DNA from: a virus | DNA: 35,641 bases | UHGV virus genome: UHGV-0194711 | Reading direction: 5' to 3' (one strand) | Part shown: piece after piece, positions 2,003 through 35,433 of the stretch | Layout of the letters: each line of letters opens with the position of its first letter | How positions within the stretch are numbered: position 1 is the stretch's first letter | Notes under the pieces: generated by a model | Database searches by the model: none | What the model was told of the DNA's origin: nothing | The model's input: the letters and a program-made list of their open reading frames with translations, nothing else | Made by a program: the position numbers and the translations under genes

Positions 2003-4522
2003 TCATGAATTAAAAGGAACAACATAATCAAAAGTACACTGGAGAGTGAAATCAAAAGTACCAGCTGCTTGAGAATATATTTCTTGGGCTGACGATTTAA
2101 TAATCGTCATTTGATTTGTCCCAGCAGGAACAAGCGGCATAACTAAAACCCCTGTAGCCGTACTAAGAATTATGCTTCCTTTAGACCCACCCTCCTGTAT
2201 AGAAGCGGCTGTAAAAGGAAGACCACTAATTACTATGGCGCCCGCAGTGCTAACCAGTAAAGAGGTTGATCTGACCCTTATATCGCAACGAACAACATCA
2301 CCAAACCGACGGTAAATTCCAATAATGGATGATGGTATTACGCTTGCGCCGCCAATTGTAATAGTTGGTGCGAATGTGCCATAAAGATACTTAAACTGAG
2401 CAGCATTACCACCGGGAAAAGCTATTGGCGGCATATAGGCATCATTTCGATTAAAAACATACTTATCGGATAAATTTGTTCCGTTTAACTCCTGAAGACC
2501 GAAAAGACGATAGTTTGAATTATCTCCAAGCTTTCTTTGAGCAACTATATTCTCACCGGCACCGATTCTTGTGCCGTTAAATTCATTAACTGGGGCAGCC
2601 TGAACCGCGCCACCTTTTACAATATCAAGGGCGAAAATATTTCCTCTTGTTGCCATCGCTGGAAATGTTGAAAGAGATGGTTCGTAGGGATCAACATTAT
2701 TAACATTAAATCTATTTCCAGCAACATCACCAAGGCCATACTTGATGATTCCTACCCTTTCCAGTATAAGAGTCCTTATTTTACTGTTACCAACATATGA
2801 TTTAAATCCGTCAACGAATTGAGCAGAGTGGTAGAATGGCGTTCTTGGAGACCACAGCACTTTAGCCTCACCAATATTGCAATGCAATATCTCCCTTCCC
2901 GGAAGTGAAATAATAGTTCTTGCGCGCCCAGCTATACCTCTATAGGTATCAACTGGGTAAACCCCATTCTGCTGATTATTTGACAACCGACCACCGCTGG
3001 CCGTAGGCAAGCAGTTTGCAGACTTGAAAACATACGTATCAAACCAAGTGTCAAGAGCGGCATATGCTGGATGTGTCCAGTCCATGCCGGTATCACCATA
3101 ATAATGAAACTTGTCTACATGGTACGAATCATTCCATCCCGCCCGATGAATATCTGATGCCGGGTACGGCGGAAGGTACTGAGACGCGTATGCATGATTT
3201 CTCGTTAGCCAGCGCCCGCCAAAAACAGGGCCTGTAATATTATACCAATATAATGTCAGCCCAGTTTGCGCCAGAGAATCAGATCCTTGATAACAAGCAG
3301 GAATGGCACACCCTGAGTACATCATATTATTTTCTACACAGCGGTTTACAGTCCCGTCTACCCATTGCCCAATAAAGAATCCGCTAATCCTGAAATCAGA
3401 AAGGTGATACTTTATGTATTGATCTGGTCCGCTGTCACCTGCGATGTATAGACCCATGGAAGATGTATGATCCCATGGTCCCGCAGTTTTTGAAAAATTA
3501 CCAATAATCCCACAATTGTGTTGGTTTTCACCAACAATCATTGAATCATCATAAACACGCAGTGCTGCTTTTGCCTTAACTGGTATTTCAGGAGCAATAT
3601 TTGAATCACCGTTCCCTATCCACCCTGGGTATACAGTCCCATCGTCGAATGGCAAATTAAACTCTATCGGTGAAGATATGCACGGATACATTTTAGTTAA
3701 ATATACCGGAAGGTTATTAGCTTTTCCGTAATCTATAGCTGCCTGTAGAAATTTAGTTGCATCAGCAGTGATGCCGTGAATATATCTTTCACCATTAATC
3801 CTTATCATTTCAGGGGTTACGTATTTTATTGCATCTTCAACGGTGCCTCCAGTAAGAACCCCTATATGCCCGCTACCTGTCGGTTTGGCATACTCAATCA
3901 TTACATCTGCTGCACTTCCACTCGAAGGCAATACCATCAATGGATTGCCATTATTATCCATTGCAACGATTTTATTTTTTCGTTCTGCAATGGAAGGTAA
4001 CGGTGTGATGCTAGACTCCGGAACGCGTAGAGTACGAGCTAGATTAATTTTTCCATTTTCAATTACAAATTTTTTAGTAGCTGCATCCTGATCGTTAACT
4101 GGATCGGCCAGATTTGCTATCCGGTAGCCGTTAGCGTTGAAAGGTCCACCGCCGAACAGCGGGCGACTTAGGGCCACTCCGAGATAAATAAACGCGCGCT
4201 GAATAGCCATCCAGAGACGGTCAAAATCTTTGTTAACTGTATCGGCCAGCAGGTCGCCGTTGTCCTGGTAATCAGTGAGCCTGTAAGTCGGCGTTACACG
4301 TTCAAAAATGACTGTAGCGCCATTGGCCGGCGCGGTCAGAAAAGTAACTTCGCCACCGCCAGTATTACCCACACCAGACACTGTATAGCCGGACGTTACT
4401 TCGTTGCCGTTGATTGTGACCTGAATATCGCTGGCGCTGATCAGGTAAAACTCATAGGCAAAGACAGTCGTCAGCCCGTTGGCGGTATAGATGTTATAGG
4501 GTGTCTGGTTCGGTACCGACAT
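2003..4522 (-). CDS. Tailspike / tail fibre protein with T7 gp17-like N-terminal adaptor and divergent low-GC receptor-binding (likely depolymerase) body
   Basis: 839 aa. N-terminal ~150 aa carry the GYRIANLADPVNDQDAATKKFV motif, similar to T7 gp17 (GRRIVNLANAVDDRDAVPFGQL). The remainder is Gly/Asn/Tyr-rich with GC dropping markedly after ~nt 4100. Confidence 0.8.
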   Translation of the reverse strand: MSVPNQTPYNIYTANGLTTVFAYEFYLISASDIQVTINGNEVTSGYTVSGVGNTGGGEVTFLTAPANGATVIFERVTPTYRLTDYQDNGDLLADTVNKDFDRLWMAIQRAFIYLGVALSRPLFGGGPFNANGYRIANLADPVNDQDAATKKFVIENGKINLARTLRVPESSITPLPSIAERKNKIVAMDNNGNPLMVLPSSGSAADVMIEYAKPTGSGHIGVLTGGTVEDAIKYVTPEMIRINGERYIHGITADATKFLQAAIDYGKANNLPVYLTKMYPCISSPIEFNLPFDDGTVYPGWIGNGDSNIAPEIPVKAKAALRVYDDSMIVGENQHNCGIIGNFSKTAGPWDHTSSMGLYIAGDSGPDQYIKYHLSDFRISGFFIGQWVDGTVNRCVENNMMYSGCAIPACYQGSDSLAQTGLTLYWYNITGPVFGGRWLTRNHAYASQYLPPYPASDIHRAGWNDSYHVDKFHYYGDTGMDWTHPAYAALDTWFDTYVFKSANCLPTASGGRLSNNQQNGVYPVDTYRGIAGRARTIISLPGREILHCNIGEAKVLWSPRTPFYHSAQFVDGFKSYVGNSKIRTLILERVGIIKYGLGDVAGNRFNVNNVDPYEPSLSTFPAMATRGNIFALDIVKGGAVQAAPVNEFNGTRIGAGENIVAQRKLGDNSNYRLFGLQELNGTNLSDKYVFNRNDAYMPPIAFPGGNAAQFKYLYGTFAPTITIGGASVIPSSIIGIYRRFGDVVRCDIRVRSTSLLVSTAGAIVISGLPFTAASIQEGGSKGSIILSTATGVLVMPLVPAGTNQMTIIKSSAQEIYSQAAGTFDFTLQCTFDYVVPFNS

Positions 4523-4539: not shown

Positions 4540-6150
4540 CTAGTAATCTACGGCGACCATGTGATCGCCATCATTTGGTTGCCAATGTTCCCGCGCCTGT
4601 GCGGTCGGAATCCCGACCAATTTACCAATGCGCACTGGTGTTGAGCTGATTGCGCCAGAGCCAGAGTCGATAAAGTCATCTGGCTGATTAGTCAGCGCCG
4701 GGTTAAAGTCGCGCATCTGGTCATACATTGGGCCGTCGAGCACGTCGGTATGCGCCCAGAGGAAGCGCGACGACAGCGGCGCTTCGAATGCATCGAGGAT
4801 GCGCTTTTGTTTATTGGTCACGCTGAATTCTTCCCGTACGCCGCAGCCGGTACCCTTTAGTGCCTGAATCAGCAATTTCCCGGCAAAGCTGCCCGGGCCG
4901 TTCACCTCGACGCAGACCAGCGGGATCTGGTATTTAAGCACCAGCTCTTTAATCTGCATCACCTGACCGCCGGTGATTTTGTCGTTGTCGTCGAATTCCG
5001 CCAGTTCGCCCGTAAGCCCCTGGCAAACATGCCAGTACAGATGCCCGCGTGCGTCGGTGAAAATCAGAGAGAACGCCGAGGCGTCGGCCTTAACTTTGCC
5101 GGTGGCCACATCCCACCAGGCAACAGCACCAACAATTTGCGTCTGGCCAAGCCACATCGAGCAGGAGCGGTTCGCGTACCGGATTTCAGGCTGTACGTTG
5201 TATTCGCGTATGCGGTCGGGATCGAGACGAACCTCGCCAACCGGTTTACTGTGCAGCTGGTACTGGCTGTCCCATTCGTTAATTGTGCGAGTCTCGCGAC
5301 GGCGCTTTGTCATTTCCTCCGGAGTGAACCTTTCTGGCCATTCACAATCGGCGTAACAGTCAACCGTGGTGCCGGGAGCCTCGGCAAACTCGATACCGTC
5401 ATCGTTAAGACGATAATCAACACCTTCAACGAGCAGTCGCGCGCCAATGTGAATACCGACGAAAACATATTCCGGCCGGAACGGTAACGAGTAACGGCTC
5501 GCAGTGGCCTGTTTTTCCTCGATTCTAAATTCTTTACCGAATAGTTTGATGGTCAGACAGTCGGCGCCCATAGATTCAACCTCATCGTAAAGGCTATCGT
5601 GGGTATGCGGCGTGCCGATAAACAGCTTTCGCCCGCCGGGGACAAGAATGTGTGTCTGTTCACCGAGACGATAACGCAGCTTTTCCCGCGCCTCTGGCGT
5701 CTGGATATTGCGGGGTACTTCTACGTCATCGTTCTGGCATTCATCAGCGCGGGCCGAGGTAACGTTAGAGAGGATCCCCTTTGCGTACATGCTGCCGTTA
5801 CGCATATCCAGAGAGCCGTTAACCCACCACTGTTCAACGGTTCCCTGTCCGTCCGGTAGCATGCCTTTGGTCAGTGGGTGATTGCGTAAAACGTTCTGCG
5901 TATCGCGGCTGGTTTTGTACGCGGTGCCGTCAGCTTCAGACTGGTGAAGAATGCGGTACTGGCGGTTCTGGTAATATCGCCATGCGTTATACACCGCCAG
6001 AATGGTAGATTTACCAAAGCCACGAAAACAGCGAAGCACCGCGAGATCCCCGCGGTGTTCCAACCAGTGGCAGGCTCGATAATGGCAGTCGGGAACCTCC
6101 CACCCCATCCGCTCCGCCCATATGATGAAAAAGGCGACGAATGAAATCAT
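4540..6150 (-). CDS. Terminase large subunit (T7 gp19-like DNA maturase B)
   Basis: 536 aa. LRCFRGFGKSTILAV Walker-A region aligns with T7 gp19 LQAFRGIGKSFITCAF from memory. Size and position next to terS are consistent. Confidence 0.85.
   Translation of the reverse strand: MISFVAFFIIWAERMGWEVPDCHYRACHWLEHRGDLAVLRCFRGFGKSTILAVYNAWRYYQNRQYRILHQSEADGTAYKTSRDTQNVLRNHPLTKGMLPDGQGTVEQWWVNGSLDMRNGSMYAKGILSNVTSARADECQNDDVEVPRNIQTPEAREKLRYRLGEQTHILVPGGRKLFIGTPHTHDSLYDEVESMGADCLTIKLFGKEFRIEEKQATASRYSLPFRPEYVFVGIHIGARLLVEGVDYRLNDDGIEFAEAPGTTVDCYADCEWPERFTPEEMTKRRRETRTINEWDSQYQLHSKPVGEVRLDPDRIREYNVQPEIRYANRSCSMWLGQTQIVGAVAWWDVATGKVKADASAFSLIFTDARGHLYWHVCQGLTGELAEFDDNDKITGGQVMQIKELVLKYQIPLVCVEVNGPGSFAGKLLIQALKGTGCGVREEFSVTNKQKRILDAFEAPLSSRFLWAHTDVLDGPMYDQMRDFNPALTNQPDDFIDSGSGAISSTPVRIGKLVGIPTAQAREHWQPNDGDHMVAVDY
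4603..4618. promoter_or_regulatory. Copy B of recurring inverted-repeat motif GGTCGGAATCCCGACC, inside the 3' end of terL, ~80 bp upstream of tailspike start
   Basis: Perfect 6 bp stem / 4 nt loop palindrome; same core as copies A, C and D. Confidence 0.5.
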
Positions 6151-12700: not shown

Positions 12701-13189
12701 TTACTCCGCATATAAACCGTATTTGCCTGTTTTTGCTTTTTTCCAGCCGCTGTATGCAGTTCCGCCAGCACTAAGTAATGAACTGCCAGCACTAATATTC
12801 CCCGCTGTCGCCGCATTACTGCCGCTGATCCTGTCGGCTTGTGCCTGCGCCTGCAGGCGATTAGAAGAATTCACGCCATTAAGGATTGTCTGATAGGCGT
12901 CCTGCTCCGCATCCCCTGCAATACCTGACGTGACACGGAGCGCCGTTCCCTCTCCCGTCTCAACGCCTGAAGCTGCCAACGCAGCATTGGCGGCAGATGC
13001 CTGCTGGCGACCGGCTTTACGAATACGCTCCGCTTCAACTTTTGCCGCTGCTTTTGATGCTTCGGCGTCGGCTTCAGCCTGCGCGGCCTGATAGTTCGCC
13101 ATTTTCTTTTGCTGCTGGCCGCTGGCCACTGCCCCGCCAGCAGCGAGAACCGAAGAAGCCACCAGTGCGATTTCAACACCTGTACACAT
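12701..13189 (-). CDS. Small internal virion protein (T7 gp14-position), membrane-associated
   Basis: Start taken at internal MCTGVEIALVASSVLAAGG (TM helix) 2 nt after the GNAT stop; Ala/Gln-rich coiled region. Track ORF extends to 13324 but that would overlap the GNAT gene. Confidence 0.5.
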   Translation of the reverse strand: MCTGVEIALVASSVLAAGGAVASGQQQKKMANYQAAQAEADAEASKAAAKVEAERIRKAGRQQASAANAALAASGVETGEGTALRVTSGIAGDAEQDAYQTILNGVNSSNRLQAQAQADRISGSNAATAGNISAGSSLLSAGGTAYSGWKKAKTGKYGLYAE

Positions 13190-13191
13190 CG

Positions 13192-13644
13192 TTAAACCTC
13201 CATCGAATAAAGCAGCCCGGTACGTTGCAGACCGAGGCGGGAATAAAGCTGGCCAGTACGTTCGGCATGGACGCCCGTGGTGATCCCCATGTTGATCACT
13301 GCGGCGCCGTGTTCTTTCGACCATTCGATAAATGCACGGGCCAGCCGTGGGCCCGCGCTGCCGCCCCGGTACTCCGGAGCGACGAACAGGCCATATTCAA
13401 ACGCCATCAACTGGCGGGAAAAAAACTGCTCCGCGATGCCGCCGCCGAGCCAGCCAATCACCAGGCCGTTTTTCTCTGCCACCAGCACGCATCCGGCGGG
13501 GGAATAAATCAGGCTCTCAGCCAGTTCCGCGCATTTGTCCGCGTCAAAGGGTGAGTTTTCGGAATAGCGGGATTCCAGGTACATCCGGGTTCCCAGTTCG
13601 ATAAGCGCCGGAATATCACCGGCGGTTGCATTACGGATCATCAT
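13192..13644 (-). CDS. GNAT-family N-acetyltransferase embedded in the virion module (T7 gp13-position)
   Basis: 150 aa with GNAT motif A (VAPEYRGGSAGPRLARAFIEW) and typical fold length; stop/start overlap with tail tubular B. Confidence 0.7.
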   Translation of the reverse strand: MMIRNATAGDIPALIELGTRMYLESRYSENSPFDADKCAELAESLIYSPAGCVLVAEKNGLVIGWLGGGIAEQFFSRQLMAFEYGLFVAPEYRGGSAGPRLARAFIEWSKEHGAAVINMGITTGVHAERTGQLYSRLGLQRTGLLYSMEV

Positions 13645-15635
13645 TAGCCCCCGTTGCTGGAGAACGTGAAAATAATCGCCAGCAGATGAAACGGCAGCGG
13701 CTGGCGTTGCTGAATAATCAAAGTGTCTTCCCCGCGCTCCCAGCCAAGTTTCCCGAAATAATGATCACCGGTGAAAAGTGGCGCGGGCTGGTTAAGGATT
13801 TTTGGGCCGAAGGTACGGAAGGGGATCACCTGACCGTTGCACTCCGCGCCAGTGGTTTCCATAAAGCGGAGCGTGACTTCGCTGGTACGCTTGCGGGCGT
13901 TCTGCGTGGTGCCTTCGGTCGTTGAGATTTCCGGCGTCAGCGTCTGGATGGTGGTTTCGTAATGCAGGCCTACTTCGATTTTTTTCGCTTTGCGGCTGAG
14001 AGTGATTTGCCCGTCTGTTACCGTTGCCTGCGGCATCACGGAACCATCGGCCACCACATCAACCGTTTTTCCATTGAGGTGAGAAAGACCTGTCCACGTG
14101 GTGGCACCTTCTGAACTGGAGCCGGTTACTGCGGAATCGGTATTCAGGTTGCTGTCGAATACTTCAACATAACGAACGGTCTGGCCGTTAACTTCCCGGC
14201 GCACCAGAACATAAATCACGTCGTCGCTTTCCGAGGGAATACTCGCCACCGATTCAAAAACGCCATCGGTGATCTGGCGTGACCATGCGACTACATCCTG
14301 CGCCCGGTCGATACCCATCGTCACCAGTACGCCATCGGCGCGGATCAGCCACACGAACGCATCAGGCTGTTGCTGATACGCCATATCGAGGACGCCGCCG
14401 GCCGTGATGTGTTCGGCCAGCACCGTTAAATCATTGGCGGAATACGAAACGTAGCTGTCGGGGTCATACGCCACGGCATACAGTTTTTTCCCGGCACGCT
14501 GGATAAACATAATTTCGGTACCGACACGAACCGGGCGAATGCTGTTGCAGCCGTACGGGCTGGGATTTTTTACCGAAATATTGGTCGGGGTGATCGCCGC
14601 GTCGCTGCCGGCAGTGATTGTAAACTCGCCGCCGTACGTCAGCGCGATAAGCGTATTCATCTGCGCCAGATGCACGATCGGGTTTAACTGGTCAGAAGAC
14701 AGCGTAAAGCTGATCGCGTCGTCGTCGTCCGTTCCCAGCTCAAACGACAGGTAAACGCCGGTTTCGCTCCACCAGATTGTTTGCGGGTACTGCGGGGAAC
14801 CAGCCAGAACCAGCCGCTGCTGGTACAGCGTCACCGCGCCGGGGTAGCCAAATTCCTCCGTCCAGACAGTATCTTCACGTGTCCAGGCTCCGGGGGATGC
14901 CGCCTGCGTTGCGCTTAAATCGGTGCGGATGGTGCCGACAGCAATCTGCGCGCTGGTGATGCTCTTAATTAGCACCAGACCGCTGTTAATGCGAACGTAC
15001 GAACCAACGTCCTCCGATATCCAGCCGGTACCAGTAAACGCGGGGGAATCGTCATCATCTGCGGGTTCGGCATCACTGAGCGTCAGCGTGATTTCTGAGC
15101 CGACGAATTCTTTAACCGATGGCTTACACCATTTCTCCGGCGTGTCGCGGATTTCGTCGAATGGTTCCACGATAAACGGCGCGGCTTCCAGTACCCAATC
15201 AGTTTGCCCCTTACGCTGCAAGCGGTGCGGCGGGACGCTCTGGTGCACTAAAAACATCGTGTCAGCGCCCTGCACGTAATTCACCTCAGACAACATATCG
15301 ACGGTGTACGGGCTGGCGATTTCATACGGGGTATTATCGTCGTTTACCAGCTGCCGGCCGTTCTGGTAGATGCGCAGATACCCGTCGCCAAATTCGAGCA
15401 TGTACGCCTGCGAGCGGTTAAAGACGTAGGGGATCAGTCGTGCTGTCCGGTCACCATATTTAGCGGCAGCGGCAAAGCGCGTACCCGGTCGGCGAACGAC
15501 ACCGCCCTGCACCACGCACACCGCGTTTTCGATAATTTTTGCACCGTTGGCATAGCGGGCGATATCAACACGCCCCATCAGGCGCGGGGAAATTTCACCC
15601 GCGGTAAAATTGGTTTTTATTAGGTTCGCGCGCAT
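13644..15635 (-). CDS. Tail tubular protein B (T7 gp12-like)
   Basis: 663 aa; N-terminal G-x-IS-x-x-P...Y..G...RRP pattern resembles T7 gp12 N-terminus; follows tubular A with overlapping start/stop. Confidence 0.65.
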   Translation of the reverse strand: MRANLIKTNFTAGEISPRLMGRVDIARYANGAKIIENAVCVVQGGVVRRPGTRFAAAAKYGDRTARLIPYVFNRSQAYMLEFGDGYLRIYQNGRQLVNDDNTPYEIASPYTVDMLSEVNYVQGADTMFLVHQSVPPHRLQRKGQTDWVLEAAPFIVEPFDEIRDTPEKWCKPSVKEFVGSEITLTLSDAEPADDDDSPAFTGTGWISEDVGSYVRINSGLVLIKSITSAQIAVGTIRTDLSATQAASPGAWTREDTVWTEEFGYPGAVTLYQQRLVLAGSPQYPQTIWWSETGVYLSFELGTDDDDAISFTLSSDQLNPIVHLAQMNTLIALTYGGEFTITAGSDAAITPTNISVKNPSPYGCNSIRPVRVGTEIMFIQRAGKKLYAVAYDPDSYVSYSANDLTVLAEHITAGGVLDMAYQQQPDAFVWLIRADGVLVTMGIDRAQDVVAWSRQITDGVFESVASIPSESDDVIYVLVRREVNGQTVRYVEVFDSNLNTDSAVTGSSSEGATTWTGLSHLNGKTVDVVADGSVMPQATVTDGQITLSRKAKKIEVGLHYETTIQTLTPEISTTEGTTQNARKRTSEVTLRFMETTGAECNGQVIPFRTFGPKILNQPAPLFTGDHYFGKLGWERGEDTLIIQQRQPLPFHLLAIIFTFSSNGG

Positions 15636-16213: not shown

Positions 16214-16241
16214 GAAAAAAGGCCGGGAGGGATCCCCCGGC
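16214..16241 (-). terminator. Rho-independent terminator immediately downstream of the major capsid gene (analogous to T7 T-phi)
   Basis: On the transcribed strand GCCGGGGGATCCCTCCCGGCC hairpin followed by TTTTTT; located between capsid stop and tubular A start. Confidence 0.6.
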
Positions 16242-17330: not shown

Positions 17331-17358
17331 AATAAAAAAGCCAGCGGGTTAGGCTGGC
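17331..17358 (-). terminator. Rho-independent terminator after the 138-aa moron gene
   Basis: Transcribed strand GCCAGCCTAACCCGCTGGC hairpin followed by TTTTTTATTT. Confidence 0.6.
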
Positions 17359-17382
17359 TTCTGGTTGTGACTGGTCACGGTG

Positions 17383-17799
17383 TTACTTGTTATTACAGGC
17401 GCCCTGGCCGGAGTAGCAGTTTTCACACATGCGCTCATCGGTACACTGCTCACTGAGCTTTTGTTTCAGCAGGTAACCTTCCAGCATCCAAATCTTGTTA
17501 ACCGCATTCTCGCGGGCAATCTTGCGACCGATCTCCGGGTCGAAGTTTTGCGGGCTGGCGCAGGCGCTTTCGCCCGTGACGGTGAAGCCGTTGTGCAGCA
17601 CCAGAACACAAATCGTCAGCAGGTTCAGCGCTGGGCTGCAATCGTCCATTGCCGACTTATCAGGCCAGCCCGCCTGAACCGCTTCGCCGACGTTGAGATA
17701 ATGGCACTCTTTGATAACGCTCTCGATATGATCAGGCGTAACGCGCGGCGCGGTTAAGCCTTTAGCCTGAATTTGCTGCTCGATATCTTTGTCGCTCAT
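17383..17799 (-). CDS. Hypothetical Cys-rich protein (moron inserted between scaffold and capsid genes)
   Basis: 138 aa; own conserved TIR (GAGGAAAGACCAATG) and own terminator; C-terminal CxxC...C cluster (CTDERMCENCYSGQGAC). Confidence 0.6.
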   Translation of the reverse strand: MSDKDIEQQIQAKGLTAPRVTPDHIESVIKECHYLNVGEAVQAGWPDKSAMDDCSPALNLLTICVLVLHNGFTVTGESACASPQNFDPEIGRKIARENAVNKIWMLEGYLLKQKLSEQCTDERMCENCYSGQGACNNK

Positions 17800-17832: not shown

Positions 17833-18681
17833 TCACGCTACAGTTTGATCACCGTAACGCTTCTGGTAGTACGCGCGAACCCGGGCGGAAACGTTCTCAT
17901 GGTCGGCGTGTTTAGGATCCATGTAGGCCGGGGACTTCATCAGGTCACGGATTGATTGCTGTTCTTCGAGATTCACATCGCCGCCCGCCGGCGCATCCTC
18001 CTGCATTTCAGCGCCGATTTTCGCCAGCATGCGGATCACCATCGGGTTATTGCCGATTTCATCCATGCGCCCTTTGTCGCCGTCATCTGCCAGAGAGTTA
18101 AATGCCCGGAAAGCCAGACCGATGTTTTTATTAAACTCGGCGTCAGTTTTCCACGTCTCGCGCAGCTGCGTGGCGGCGGCTTCCGAATCCAGCGCCGCAG
18201 CACCGTTAACCAGTTCGGGGGCCAGCTGTGCATATTCGCCCAGGATGAAACCCATCTGATCGTTGGTGATGCCTTTGGCATGAGCCGATTTCATGAAGGA
18301 TTGCATGCGCGGGTCGGCTTTGAATTCGTCCCACTTAAAACCCTCGACCTCTACCTTTGGCGCATACTCATCAGCCGTTTTCGGCGGCGTGTCGCCGCTG
18401 CCCATGCGCTTTTCAAGGTGCGTGTAAGCATCCGCCAGTTTGCGGGCTGAGCCTTCAACGTTGAGTTTTCCGTCATCGCCCATAACGCGGTATTTTTCAG
18501 GTAGCCAGTCATCCGCGCCTTGTTCGCCCGCGCCGGTGCTGAGTAGCGAAGTACCAGCAGGAGTACCGCCGCCCGGATTTTGAGTACCATCGCTATTACC
18601 AGCATCATCCCCTCCTGCGTTACCCGCTGGCGCTTCTGCACCTGTTTCGGTGTTCATGAATAAGTGTTTAAACTTCCACAT
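17833..18681 (-). CDS. Capsid assembly (scaffolding) protein (T7 gp9-like)
   Basis: 282 aa, highly acidic, Gly/Ala-rich N-terminus, between portal and capsid genes. Confidence 0.65.
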   Translation of the reverse strand: MWKFKHLFMNTETGAEAPAGNAGGDDAGNSDGTQNPGGGTPAGTSLLSTGAGEQGADDWLPEKYRVMGDDGKLNVEGSARKLADAYTHLEKRMGSGDTPPKTADEYAPKVEVEGFKWDEFKADPRMQSFMKSAHAKGITNDQMGFILGEYAQLAPELVNGAAALDSEAAATQLRETWKTDAEFNKNIGLAFRAFNSLADDGDKGRMDEIGNNPMVIRMLAKIGAEMQEDAPAGGDVNLEEQQSIRDLMKSPAYMDPKHADHENVSARVRAYYQKRYGDQTVA

Positions 18682-18901
18682 CGTCGTTTACTCCGTCTGC
18701 TTTGTTGATTTGCATCAGAATGAAATCGAGCACGGAACGCTGTCCGGCCCGGTAACAGGTTTCCCGGTCGCCTTCGGTACCGCCTTTGACATACGCCTCA
18801 CGCCCGAAGCGGCGCGTTAATTCGTCCAGCACCTGCGGCCCGCCGGGCATCTCCTCGAAAATGCGCCGGTAGTCTTCAGGGGTTACGTCTTTTTTGATCA
18901 T
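18668..18901 (-). CDS. Hypothetical small protein between portal and scaffold genes
   Basis: 77 aa ORF with start overlapping the portal stop and end overlapping the scaffold start; protein-like composition. Confidence 0.4.
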   Translation of the reverse strand: MIKKDVTPEDYRRIFEEMPGGPQVLDELTRRFGREAYVKGGTEGDRETCYRAGQRSVLDFILMQINKADGVNDDVEV

Positions 18902-20523
18902 TGGTTGCCCGCCAGTCGTTGTCCCATAATTGCGCCTGCTGCCTGCCCTGCTGCGCCGGCGGCTTCCGTCCCGGCCTGCATCAGCAACTGCTGTTGCGCC
19001 TGCTGCTGTTGCATCTGCTGGCGCTGCTGTCGAAGTTGCTCGACCGCATCAGCGGAACGCATAACTTTTGCCGGAACGCCAAGAGCCTCGCCGACAACCT
19101 TGCTCGCCTCGTCGCTGTCCATGTTGTCCAGTACATCCGGGTACGCCTGCGCCAGCTGCATGATGTTCTGGCCGTATCGCTCGATGGCGGTCACATCTTC
19201 CAGCTTCTGCGCACGGGCCAGCGGGGAGATATAACGCACGTTGAAATTGGCGCTCTGGAGGCTCTCGGGAGCGGGAGGAAAAACGCCAGCGCGGAACGCA
19301 ATACCGAAGCAGCGCTCCACCAGCGGTTGCAGGTATTCAGCCTGGAATCGTCCATAGACCGGGCCAAGCAACTGGCGGATCAGCGCGACACGCACATGCA
19401 CTTCGGTAGCAGTCATTGCCGGGCCGTCCTGCGGTTGCAACTGATCGGCCATCATGATTTTGCGAATGGAAGCCTGCAGGCGCTGTTCAGCGGTAAACGC
19501 CACGTTGAAATCTGCGCCGGTGAGCAAAGGTTTCATGCTTTCGGTGCTGTTCGCCACGATGACGCGGCGCGGGCCAACTTTTACCGTTCGCGGGTTGAGC
19601 ACGCCGTCATCCTCAGCAATCCACATACCGGAGATAGCCAGATCCTGCGCGGCCTTCTCCATGCGTTTGGTTTCGTTCAGCTCTTTGCAGTCCGGCAGCG
19701 CGTCGTATACCGGGCCGATACCGTAGGAGCCGCCGGGAATTTTCATCCAGCGCGGGACGCACACAGGGAATTCGTGATAGCCGGATTCACGCACGATACG
19801 CTTGCCGTTCACTTCCACGTTGAACGATGCAAAACGCATATTGCGCGCCAGCTTCGCATTTACGGCGTAGGTATCACGCGGGAAAATGCAGTGCAGGAAA
19901 TCAAATTTATCGTCAGGTTTGTTTTTTGCAGCATCGCGGATTTTTTCGCTTACCTTGTCCGCGCCGAATTCTTTCACTGCCTGTTCAGCGGTGAGCTGAT
20001 AGCACCGATAAATCGTGTCCACGATGCCATCCCGGCGGGTGGAAGTCACAAAGCATTGCGCCAGCGGCCACTGCTGGAAGGTAAATCCTCCCTCTTCCTT
20101 GTCCTCATCGACGTACAGCGCGAACCAGCCAGCACAGACCACATCGAGATTGGCCTCGTACCCTTCCGCGTCAAAGTTAGCGGCGTGGATATTTTCCCAT
20201 ACCAGCGTTGCACAGGTGGACAACCACGCCTTAGCGTCATCAGGAAGTAATTCGCTGTCGAGGTTCAGCCATTGAGCATTCGCCGGGGTCATCCCTGACA
20301 TAAGCGCGGACGCCAGCATACGGGCGCTGTCGGTGGCTGTGCCGTCCAGCAGCTTCGCAACCTTGTGCTTTGCGCTCTGTGCGTCCAGCACCTCAGACGA
20401 AAACCCGGCCCCGCGCAGCGGATAGGTGTAGTCGTAGCATTCCCGCCAGACGCTTTCGTGCACCTGGCGATTTGCTTTCAGCGTGTCAGCGCGCCTGATT
20501 AACCGGCTGGCGAGTTGATCCAT
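18898..20523 (-). CDS. Portal (head-to-tail connector) protein, T7 gp8-like
   Basis: 541 aa (T7 gp8 is 536 aa); Gln-rich C-terminal tail (QQRQQMQQQQAQQQ) as in T7 portal; precedes scaffold and capsid. Confidence 0.8.
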   Translation of the reverse strand: MDQLASRLIRRADTLKANRQVHESVWRECYDYTYPLRGAGFSSEVLDAQSAKHKVAKLLDGTATDSARMLASALMSGMTPANAQWLNLDSELLPDDAKAWLSTCATLVWENIHAANFDAEGYEANLDVVCAGWFALYVDEDKEEGGFTFQQWPLAQCFVTSTRRDGIVDTIYRCYQLTAEQAVKEFGADKVSEKIRDAAKNKPDDKFDFLHCIFPRDTYAVNAKLARNMRFASFNVEVNGKRIVRESGYHEFPVCVPRWMKIPGGSYGIGPVYDALPDCKELNETKRMEKAAQDLAISGMWIAEDDGVLNPRTVKVGPRRVIVANSTESMKPLLTGADFNVAFTAEQRLQASIRKIMMADQLQPQDGPAMTATEVHVRVALIRQLLGPVYGRFQAEYLQPLVERCFGIAFRAGVFPPAPESLQSANFNVRYISPLARAQKLEDVTAIERYGQNIMQLAQAYPDVLDNMDSDEASKVVGEALGVPAKVMRSADAVEQLRQQRQQMQQQQAQQQLLMQAGTEAAGAAGQAAGAIMGQRLAGNQ

Positions 20524-34187: not shown

Positions 34188-34433
34188 ATGAGACACGATC
34201 ACGACATCATCACCAGAGAGGAAATGATCGAACTGACGGGGACCCCACTTAAATCGAGGCAGTGTGAAGCGCTACGTCGGGCCGGTGTCTTTTTCATGGA
34301 AAGGGCAGACGGCCATCCTAAAACGACGTGGGGCCATTTCCTGAACCCGATTAAATACCGCAACCAGCAGGAAGAGACGGTGCGGGAGGAAGAACCAGAC
34401 TTCGGAGCTATCTTTAATGGCCGGAAAACGTAA
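34188..34433 (+). CDS. DUF4224-family protein (excisionase-like, upstream of integrase)
   Basis: ITREEMIELTGTPLKSRQCEALRRAGVFF matches the DUF4224 pattern typically found next to integrases; TIR GAGGAAAGACCATG variant. Confidence 0.55.
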   Translation: MRHDHDIITREEMIELTGTPLKSRQCEALRRAGVFFMERADGHPKTTWGHFLNPIKYRNQQEETVREEEPDFGAIFNGRKT

Positions 34434-35433
34434 GAACCCCGCTGATAACTGGATGCCGCCCCGCGTGTATCGCGGTAAGGCGGCGTATGAATTCAGGAAT
34501 AAAGATAACAAGGCTATCAGGCTATGTGCGCTCTCCGAGCCTCAATCAGCTGTATGGCTGGCATATGAAAAAGCCATGGGAGAAGAAGTCGAGCGCAAGA
34601 CGTTTCAGGCTCTGGCCGATCAATTCATGTCTTCCCCTGACTGGCAGGATTTAGCGGCAGAAACCCGCAAAGACTACACGAAATACGCAGGCAAAGTGTT
34701 GCCGGTGTTCGGGAAGGTTAACCCCGATAAAATTAAACCGGAACACATCCGGCGCTATATGGATCAGCGTGGCATGGCCAGTAAAACGCAGGCCAACCGG
34801 GAAAAGAGTTTTCTTTCTCGGGTATTCCGCTGGGGTTATGAGCGGGGTTACGTCCAGCATAATCCCTGTCAGGGCGTTAAGAAGTTCAAAGAGGCAGCCC
34901 GGGAGCGTTACATCACCGACGAAGAATACAAAGCGGTTTACGATGTTGCTCCAGACGTAGTTCGCGCCACCATGGAAATCGCTTATTTGTGTCTGGCCAG
35001 ACAAAGCGATGTGCTGGCTTTGACTGAAGACCAGATACGCGAAACCGGGATCTTTATCCGCCAGGGGAAAACAGGCGTGAAGCAAATCAAAGCATGGTCG
35101 CCACGCCTGCGCGCCGCTGTCGCCCTCGCCCGTTCCCTGCCGTTAAAGCCGGGTATCCGTAGCCTGTTTGTCATTCACCAGACCAGCGGCAGCAAATACA
35201 CCCGTGACGGTTTTAATTCACGCTGGCGCGACGCGAAAATCGCAGCGCAGGAAAAGAACCCACACCTGCAGATAGATTTCACTTTCCACGATCTGAAAGC
35301 GAAAGGTGTCTCTGATCTGGAAGGAAGCCTCGAGGAGAAACAGGCGATTTCAGGCCATAAGAATTCGAGACAAACGGCGATTTACGACAGGAAAACTAAA
35401 ATTGTGCCGGTTGTTGGTGGTCAGAAAAAATGA
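34417..35433 (+). CDS. int: Tyrosine recombinase / phage integrase
   Basis: 338 aa; C-terminal catalytic region HDLKAKG...GHKNSRQTAIYDR (H-x-x-R and Tyr); adjacent to tRNA att site. Confidence 0.9.
   Translation: MAGKRKNPADNWMPPRVYRGKAAYEFRNKDNKAIRLCALSEPQSAVWLAYEKAMGEEVERKTFQALADQFMSSPDWQDLAAETRKDYTKYAGKVLPVFGKVNPDKIKPEHIRRYMDQRGMASKTQANREKSFLSRVFRWGYERGYVQHNPCQGVKKFKEAARERYITDEEYKAVYDVAPDVVRATMEIAYLCLARQSDVLALTEDQIRETGIFIRQGKTGVKQIKAWSPRLRAAVALARSLPLKPGIRSLFVIHQTSGSKYTRDGFNSRWRDAKIAAQEKNPHLQIDFTFHDLKAKGVSDLEGSLEEKQAISGHKNSRQTAIYDRKTKIVPVVGGQKK

Follow-up and report, generated by a model that had tools for sequence, protein, structure and literature searches.

A GNAT acetyltransferase of the phrog_1249 family in the gene 13 slot of a T7-type structural block, and its probable relation to T7 gp13

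The gene that follows the nozzle gene in the window (the whole 35,641-nt stretch of viral DNA analysed here, UHGV-0194711) is assigned with high confidence to a GNAT lineage that is native to the late block of T7-type phages, as its member in the gp13 slot. It is a fixed member of this virion-assembly block, not a foreign insert, and it is the positional and probably also the evolutionary counterpart of T7 gene 13, whose product appears from structure modelling to be a degenerate copy of the same GNAT fold. Judged by its retained residues, the window family is apparently a catalytically competent GNAT. It is proposed, at what we regard as evenly balanced probability, that the protein is an active assembly-stage acetyltransferase directed at a component of the virion or ejectosome, being itself non-structural or of low copy number.

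Our bioinformatic analysis of the window protein gave scores above the GNAT profile thresholds of both PF00583 (43.7 bits, cut-off 20.7) and PF13508 (32.9 bits, cut-off 27), a GNAT, 4j3g_A, as the best match in a PDB profile search (E 7e-11), and a full-length HMM match to phrog_1249 (E 1.4e-47, residues 1-149 on profile positions 8-156 of 180). In its predicted structure the elements follow the GNAT fold order b1-a1-a2-b2-b3-b4-a3-b5-a4-b6. The acetyl-CoA pyrophosphate loop (Table 1) conforms to the motif A pattern Q/R-x-x-G-x-G/A, with the deviation that the central Gly is replaced by Ser or Thr in the window family. Residue conservation was counted in the close family (n=22) and in samples taken across phrog_1249 (n=12): R93 and the Gly or Ala at position 98 are each present in 22/22 and 12/12 of these proteins, and G94 in 22/22 and 10/12. 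Tyr134 stands at what we take, from general knowledge of GNATs, to be the usual position of the general acid, and Glu83 is a candidate general base. The retention of R93, G94, Gly/Ala98, Tyr134 and the acidic residue of beta4 at 28-35% identity would be hard to explain without use of the cofactor. Cellular protein N-acetyltransferases (archaeal Ard1, Naa10/30/50, RimI and HPA2) are 13-24% identical to the window protein, and small-molecule GNATs score nearly equally against it.

Table 1. Position in the window of the GNAT gene, its presumed functional residues, its junctions and the neighbouring structural genes.
Feature	Coordinates	Strand	Evidence or remark
Portal gene	18898-20523	(-)	same-strand block
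Tail tubular protein A / adaptor gene, 187 aa	15635..16198	(-)	phrog_394 E 3e-60
Nozzle / tail tubular protein B gene, 663 aa	13644..15635	(-)	PF25675 Phage_nozzle E 2.7e-8; phrog_376 E 1e-220
TAATG junction, nozzle stop and GNAT start share one base	13642..13646	(-)	sequence and ORF ends
GNAT acetyltransferase gene, 150 aa, phrog_1249 family, gp13 slot	13192..13644	(-)	intact ORF
Glu83 codon, strand beta4	13396..13398	(-)	E/D in 22/22 close relatives, 10/12 distant
R93-G94-G95-S96-A97-G98 codons, motif A acetyl-CoA pyrophosphate loop	13351..13368	(-)	aligns to RGGGIG of 4j3g_A
Tyr134 codon, helix alpha4	13243..13245	(-)	Y in 21/22 close relatives, 9/12 distant
GGAGG, then GNAT stop TAA (13194-13192), CG, gp14-like ATG at 13189	13187..13203	(-)	sequence
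gp14-like internal virion protein gene, 162 aa	12701..13189	(-)	phrog_418 E 1.5e-41; PF24072 T7_gp14 weak
gp15-position internal virion protein gene, SLT lytic transglycosylase domain, 903 aa	9984..12695	(-)	PF01464 E 1.2e-9; phrog_1044
gp16-like large internal virion protein gene, 967 aa	7081..9984	(-)	phrog_342 E 2.7e-194

The initial annotation had placed the GNAT gene between tail tubular B and the internal core proteins, at the position of T7 gene 13, and the matches to PF00583 and phrog_1249 together with those of the neighbouring genes bear this out: portal, scaffold, capsid, tail tubular A, nozzle, GNAT, gp14-like protein, SLT-domain core protein and gp16-like protein are encoded in this order on one strand. 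The gp14-like protein has a hydrophobic N-terminus, MCTGVEIALVASS... The coupled stop/start overlaps of that annotation hold for the upstream junction only; the downstream junction with the gp14-like gene is a 2-nt gap, yet a tight one, and the GGAGG ahead of the gp14-like start is placed within the 3' end of the GNAT gene. Since both junctions are tight, translational coupling is possible. The (-) strand of the structural block was found to be free of sigma-70-like promoters throughout, and neither side of the GNAT gene has a convincing terminator. Strong terminator-like hairpins occur at 16222-16241 (-), directly after the capsid gene, and at 17336-17362 (-), after a 138-aa ORF; they resemble the attenuator of T7, which lies after the major capsid gene. 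This 138-aa ORF (17383-17799 (-), between scaffold and capsid, phrog_322) and a 77-aa ORF (18668-18901 (-), between portal and scaffold, phrog_5977), both of function unknown in PHROG, are additional genes within the head module.

The window phage is a mosaic, in which an integrase (34417-35433), an O-like replication initiator, a DnaB-type helicase and an exonuclease are combined with a T7-type structural block running from portal to core proteins; a large terminase (4540-6150) and a tail spike (2003-4522) are also encoded, and a scan of the large window ORFs revealed no RNA polymerase. Among isolates the window phage is closest to the temperate Yersinia phages YeP4, YeP5 and YeP6, whose GNAT is 65% identical to that of the window; the gene order of YeP5, read from its annotation, is that of the window, and YeP4 and YeP6 have the GNAT gene at the same coordinates. 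A megablast search of the region against isolated phages gave no match. Homologues with 60-97% identity are found in Klebsiella, Citrobacter, Enterobacter, Serratia, Yersinia, Pantoea, Pectobacterium, Brenneria and Dickeya genomes, and this spread across enterobacterial genera implies that the temperate podophage, with its T7-type structural module, is widespread.

Conservation of the locus was examined in Enterobacterales genomes and IMG/VR at 92 related loci, of which reference genomes contributed 12 and IMG/VR 80. The order nozzle-GNAT-gp14 is kept in 89 of them, with the nozzle gene ending at most 6 nt upstream and the gp14-like gene starting a few nt downstream; the three exceptions are two contig ends and one partial copy. 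The GNAT ORF is intact at all related loci but one, a Sodalis symbiont MAG (L010), in which the frame ends early at codon 130 and the nozzle gene is fragmented, a combination that points to a decaying prophage. On one IMG/VR contig (L099:7001-7405) the GNAT copy covers residues 16-150 only and has no nozzle homologue upstream, which may reflect a rearrangement or an assembly artefact. Symbiopectobacterium sp. RP has three loci with the module (L013-L015), two of them at opposite ends of one contig. Distant betaproteobacterial matches (L017-L019) offered no interpretable gene context. By pairwise NG86 estimates the GNAT gene is under purifying selection (dN/dS 0.11-0.14) at a level similar to that of scaffold (0.12) and of tail tubular A (0.09-0.11); the values for capsid and nozzle are about 0.07-0.08. 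The initial annotation had named homologues always at this locus with an established structural role as evidence against its reading; the fixed locus is indeed what we find, and the role is loosely established, for T7 gp13 only.

Members of the family were found by tblastn in 244 isolated phage genomes. Among them are SP6 gp28 and the K1-5 'acetyltransferase', Aeromonas MJG_26, Celeribacter P12053L_44 and SIO1 pc40, and a protein of Acinetobacter TPWB-05, which match the window protein over the full length at 28-35% identity and have in common with it the motif A Arg and Gly/Ala, the Tyr and the acidic residues; a PHROGs scan assigned the proteins of K1-5, Aeromonas MJG and Celeribacter P12053L, and both copies of the metagenomic contig L106 described below, to phrog_1249. 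The gene always lies within or at the edge of the T7-type structural block (window, K1-5, MJG, P12053L, Oiolarie, Paso, BD5 and TPWB-05), and two positions can be distinguished. The gp13-slot position, with the order nozzle, GNAT and gp14-like gene, is found in Yersinia YeP5, Acinetobacter TPWB-05, the Cobavirinae phage Celeribacter P12053L and L106. The pre-portal position, 1-3 small genes upstream of the portal gene, is found in K1-5 (SP6-like), MJG (Colwellvirinae), Pseudomonas Oiolarie, Rhizobium Paso and Vibrio BD5, a set that includes two phiKMV-type phages sampled; in all of these the gp14-like gene comes immediately after the nozzle gene, leaving nothing in the gp13 slot. No GNAT is encoded upstream of the window portal gene, where a 149-aa ORF is not GNAT-like. 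The two positions look mutually exclusive in this small sample, which suggests a single function whose gene has been relocated inside the late block. L106 (4220-5127; a Logan SRR20363642 contig, with L107 and L108 showing the same) carries two tandem phrog_1249 GNATs, 30% identical, in the gp13 slot, flanked by a nozzle gene and a gp14-like gene 46% and 42% identical to those of the window. In the second copy the R-D-T-G-A-G loop is canonical and the Tyr is present, and the first has Leu at the Tyr position; the pair may be a snapshot of a duplication followed by decay of one copy.

T7 gp13 (PF11090 Phage_T7_Gp13, phrog_308), known as 'internal virion protein A' or 'probable scaffold protein', is encoded at the equivalent place, with the nozzle gene (12) on one side and gene 14 on the other, and has 138 residues compared with 150 in the window protein. 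The need of T7 gene 13 for infectivity has been known for decades and is still without a mechanism. The protein is reported to be necessary for infection, its location in the virion being undetermined (PMC8811829), and it was not detected in phiPsa17 virions, in which gp6.7, gp7.3, gp14-16 and even the scaffold protein were detected (PMC4517105). A correspondence with GNATs has been raised before: Bischoff et al. 2019 described SIO1 pc40 as a GNAT that 'could correspond to gp13 from T7' (PMC6775973), and a T7-like Pseudomonas phage was reported to encode a 145-aa 'acetyltransferase', recognised by HHpred, between gp12 and gp14 (PMC10142737). By direct comparison the two proteins show nothing significant (BLASTP of the window protein against T7 gp13, E 9.8); the window protein has no PF11090 match at E <= 0.01, and a PDB sequence search with the gp13 profile returned no GNAT. 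PF00583 is matched, weakly, by 1 of 130 gp13 representatives, and the window protein matches canonical GNAT models strongly.

The structure model of a 97%-identical proxy of T7 gp13 nevertheless has a GNAT fold, with the same order of strands and helices as predicted for the window protein. A gp13 profile search over 1.84 billion representatives yielded 224 relatives, of which 130 were aligned, all matching PF11090 (130/130), and hhalign aligned a diverse set of phrog_1249 sequences with these 130 representatives from end to end (probability 87.9%, E 3.2e-6, 133 columns). The relation surfaced only with the 130 diverse representatives; with shallow gp13 alignments the hhalign match was limited to the N-terminal strand, where MxIRxAT..D is common to both families. 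The gp13 family and the window family are therefore regarded as remote homologues with, as modelled, a shared fold, the profile match being of moderate strength. The gp13 family differs in having no conserved residue in the b4-a3 loop, with a 4-residue deletion there in half of the 130 representatives, and in having Leu at the site of the window family's Tyr134. The fold and profile relation, taken together with the lost loop, implies that the slot would hold a GNAT fold in T7 too, degenerate there and apparently competent here. This disagrees with the view that a GNAT has displaced gp13 from its slot, since the gp13 proxy models as a GNAT, the families are related, the locus is fixed and the gene is under purifying selection. 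Another T7 protein, gp7 (L021:831-1232, 133 aa, phrog_2746 'host range'), is encoded at the pre-portal position where SP6-like phages carry the GNAT. By hhalign it aligns weakly, but in register, with b3-b5 of phrog_1249 (11.9%, E 0.0025); among PDB entries the GNAT MccE is a weak match (E 0.51), and gp7 could be a second degenerate GNAT in T7. The long proteins P0199, P0210, P0212, P0213 and P0220 (1614-5796 aa) each match a part of the gp13 profile of about 50 residues 10-23 times; these multiple matches may come from repeat proteins or be a compositional artefact.

We propose that late in infection the GNAT gene would be transcribed together with the nozzle and internal core genes and coupled to them in translation, and that its product would bind acetyl-CoA and, most likely, acetylate a protein during assembly of the virion or ejectosome. 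The most plausible targets would be the N-terminus or a lysine of a core protein or a small ejected protein. Acetylation would then serve to make the particles infectious, and the GNAT would probably be no stoichiometric component of the virion. A modifier of virion proteins, one of the roles suggested by the initial annotation, thus stays the leading idea, with its enzymatic activity presumed. To our knowledge no acetylated T7-type virion protein has been described. The gp14-like proteins of the window (13187-13189), YeP5 (L001:25490) and T7 (L002:3729) start with Met-Cys, and the others sampled start with MA or MW. A second residue of small size would be suitable for processing and acetylation of the N-terminus, but the Cys2 pattern is not general in gp14 N-termini. 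An extension of the proposal, which we consider speculative and unlikely, is that assembly in the T7 supergroup ancestrally involved an acetyl-CoA-dependent modification of an ejection or core component by this GNAT lineage, with gp13 as a dead-enzyme relic keeping the binding or chaperone half and the window protein as the active form.

If gp13 does its work without the motifs for cofactor binding, the slot may not call for catalysis, and the protein could instead be an assembly chaperone by virtue of its fold alone, holding a partner peptide in the GNAT groove, with acetyl transfer dispensable. The gp13 family, with its fold kept and its loop and Tyr lost, and the L106 pair, with one canonical copy and one carrying Leu, are what such a chaperone would predict, but the persistence of R93, G94, Gly/Ala98, Tyr134 and the acidic beta4 residue across lineages only 28-35% identical argues against it, and we consider it improbable for the window family. 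A further explanation, absent from the initial annotation, is that the late-made enzyme acetylates proteins of the host, such as proteases, unfoldases or components of transcription or translation, so as to reprogramme the cell or shut it down; linkage to structural genes would then be one of timing only. The model for this is LUZ19 gp28 (Rac), which resembles the window family in being a small phage GNAT encoded at the edge of the late structural block, in its case immediately ahead of the first structural gene. [quoted passage not shown] Rac is the sole characterised distant relative, and that it acts on the host and not on virion proteins counts against the assembly proposal; it belongs to phrog_3986, with a weak secondary match to phrog_1249 (E 4.9e-4). 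The Drulisvirus fHe-Kpn01 encodes at the same pre-portal position gp38, which was GNAT-like by its authors' HHpred, toxic in E. coli and not detected in a virion proteome of 29 proteins (PMC7291057). However, the effect of Rac is genus-specific, as the LKA1 homologue encoded at the same place does not cleave alpha (PMC7552054), and the rac gene lies just downstream of that of the phage single-subunit RNAP and overlaps the first structural gene, whereas the window GNAT gene follows the nozzle gene in a phage with no RNA polymerase of its own among the ORFs scanned. Disabling the host RNAP would harm such a phage, so that a Rac-type shut-off is unlikely in it. The window protein has no phrog_3986 match and no pairwise similarity to Rac (BLASTP E 4.3), and fHe-Kpn01 gp38 is not significantly similar to the phrog_1249 family. 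Host takeover would also leave the cofactor-less GNAT fold beside gp14 in T7 unexplained, and we give it a low, though not negligible, probability. The Klebsiella phage protein gp38 itself (L105:4094-4534, 146 aa, phrog_5167) appears to be without a motif A loop, and hhalign found no significant alignment of it with the phrog_1249 or gp13 families.

Two other roles had been put forward by the initial annotation. In one, the GNAT would be packaged in the capsid with the core proteins and ejected as an effector that acetylates a host target on entry. The gene adjoins and is coupled to the genes of the ejected core proteins, and early T7 nomenclature annotated gp13 as 'internal virion protein A'; the virion proteomes of phiPsa17 (PMC4517105) and fHe-Kpn01 (PMC7291057), which lack gp13 and the GNAT-like gp38 respectively, nevertheless speak against packaging, as do the position of the homologue outside the core genes in several lineages and the prediction that the window protein is a single compact domain without any extension able to serve as a packaging signal. 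Our search of the literature found no virion proteomics for a bona fide phrog_1249 protein. The ejected effector is thus left unsupported and very doubtful. In the other, the gene would be a toxin-like moron, a reading considered here together with that of a lysogenic-conversion or resistance gene for an aminoglycoside or other small-molecule acetyltransferase and that of the GNAT toxin of a toxin-antitoxin pair. Its location in a prophage and weak NCBIfam matches to AAC, RimI and ArsN1 models might suggest this, but these matches score 16.7-20 bits against cut-offs of 86-200 (19.6 against 86.4 for RimI), the gene has no promoter or terminator of its own, its neighbours are nozzle and gp14-like genes with no antitoxin among them, PADLOC gave no match, and the gene is fixed in a late operon and common to strictly lytic phages too. 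Resistance, toxin and defence readings were ruled out by these scores and the gene context, and we find a moron of any of these kinds scarcely credible.

Several deposited genomes already carry annotations of this arrangement, and the correspondence to gp13 has already been proposed in print. New here are explicit evidence, from fold and profile, for gp13 as a GNAT that lacks the motifs, a survey of the fixed synteny and of selection across the enterobacterial prophage clade, and the pattern of two alternative gene positions. For annotation this means that such GNAT genes should not be labelled morons, AMGs or resistance genes, nor GNATs of the gp13 slot be called 'internal virion proteins' unless proteomics supports it. 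Should gp13 be a degenerate GNAT, with an apparently active enzyme kept in the same operon by many relatives, the function of gp13 becomes testable, and with it the use by podophages of protein acetylation in assembly or late infection, for which temperate Klebsiella or Yersinia phages would be tractable systems.
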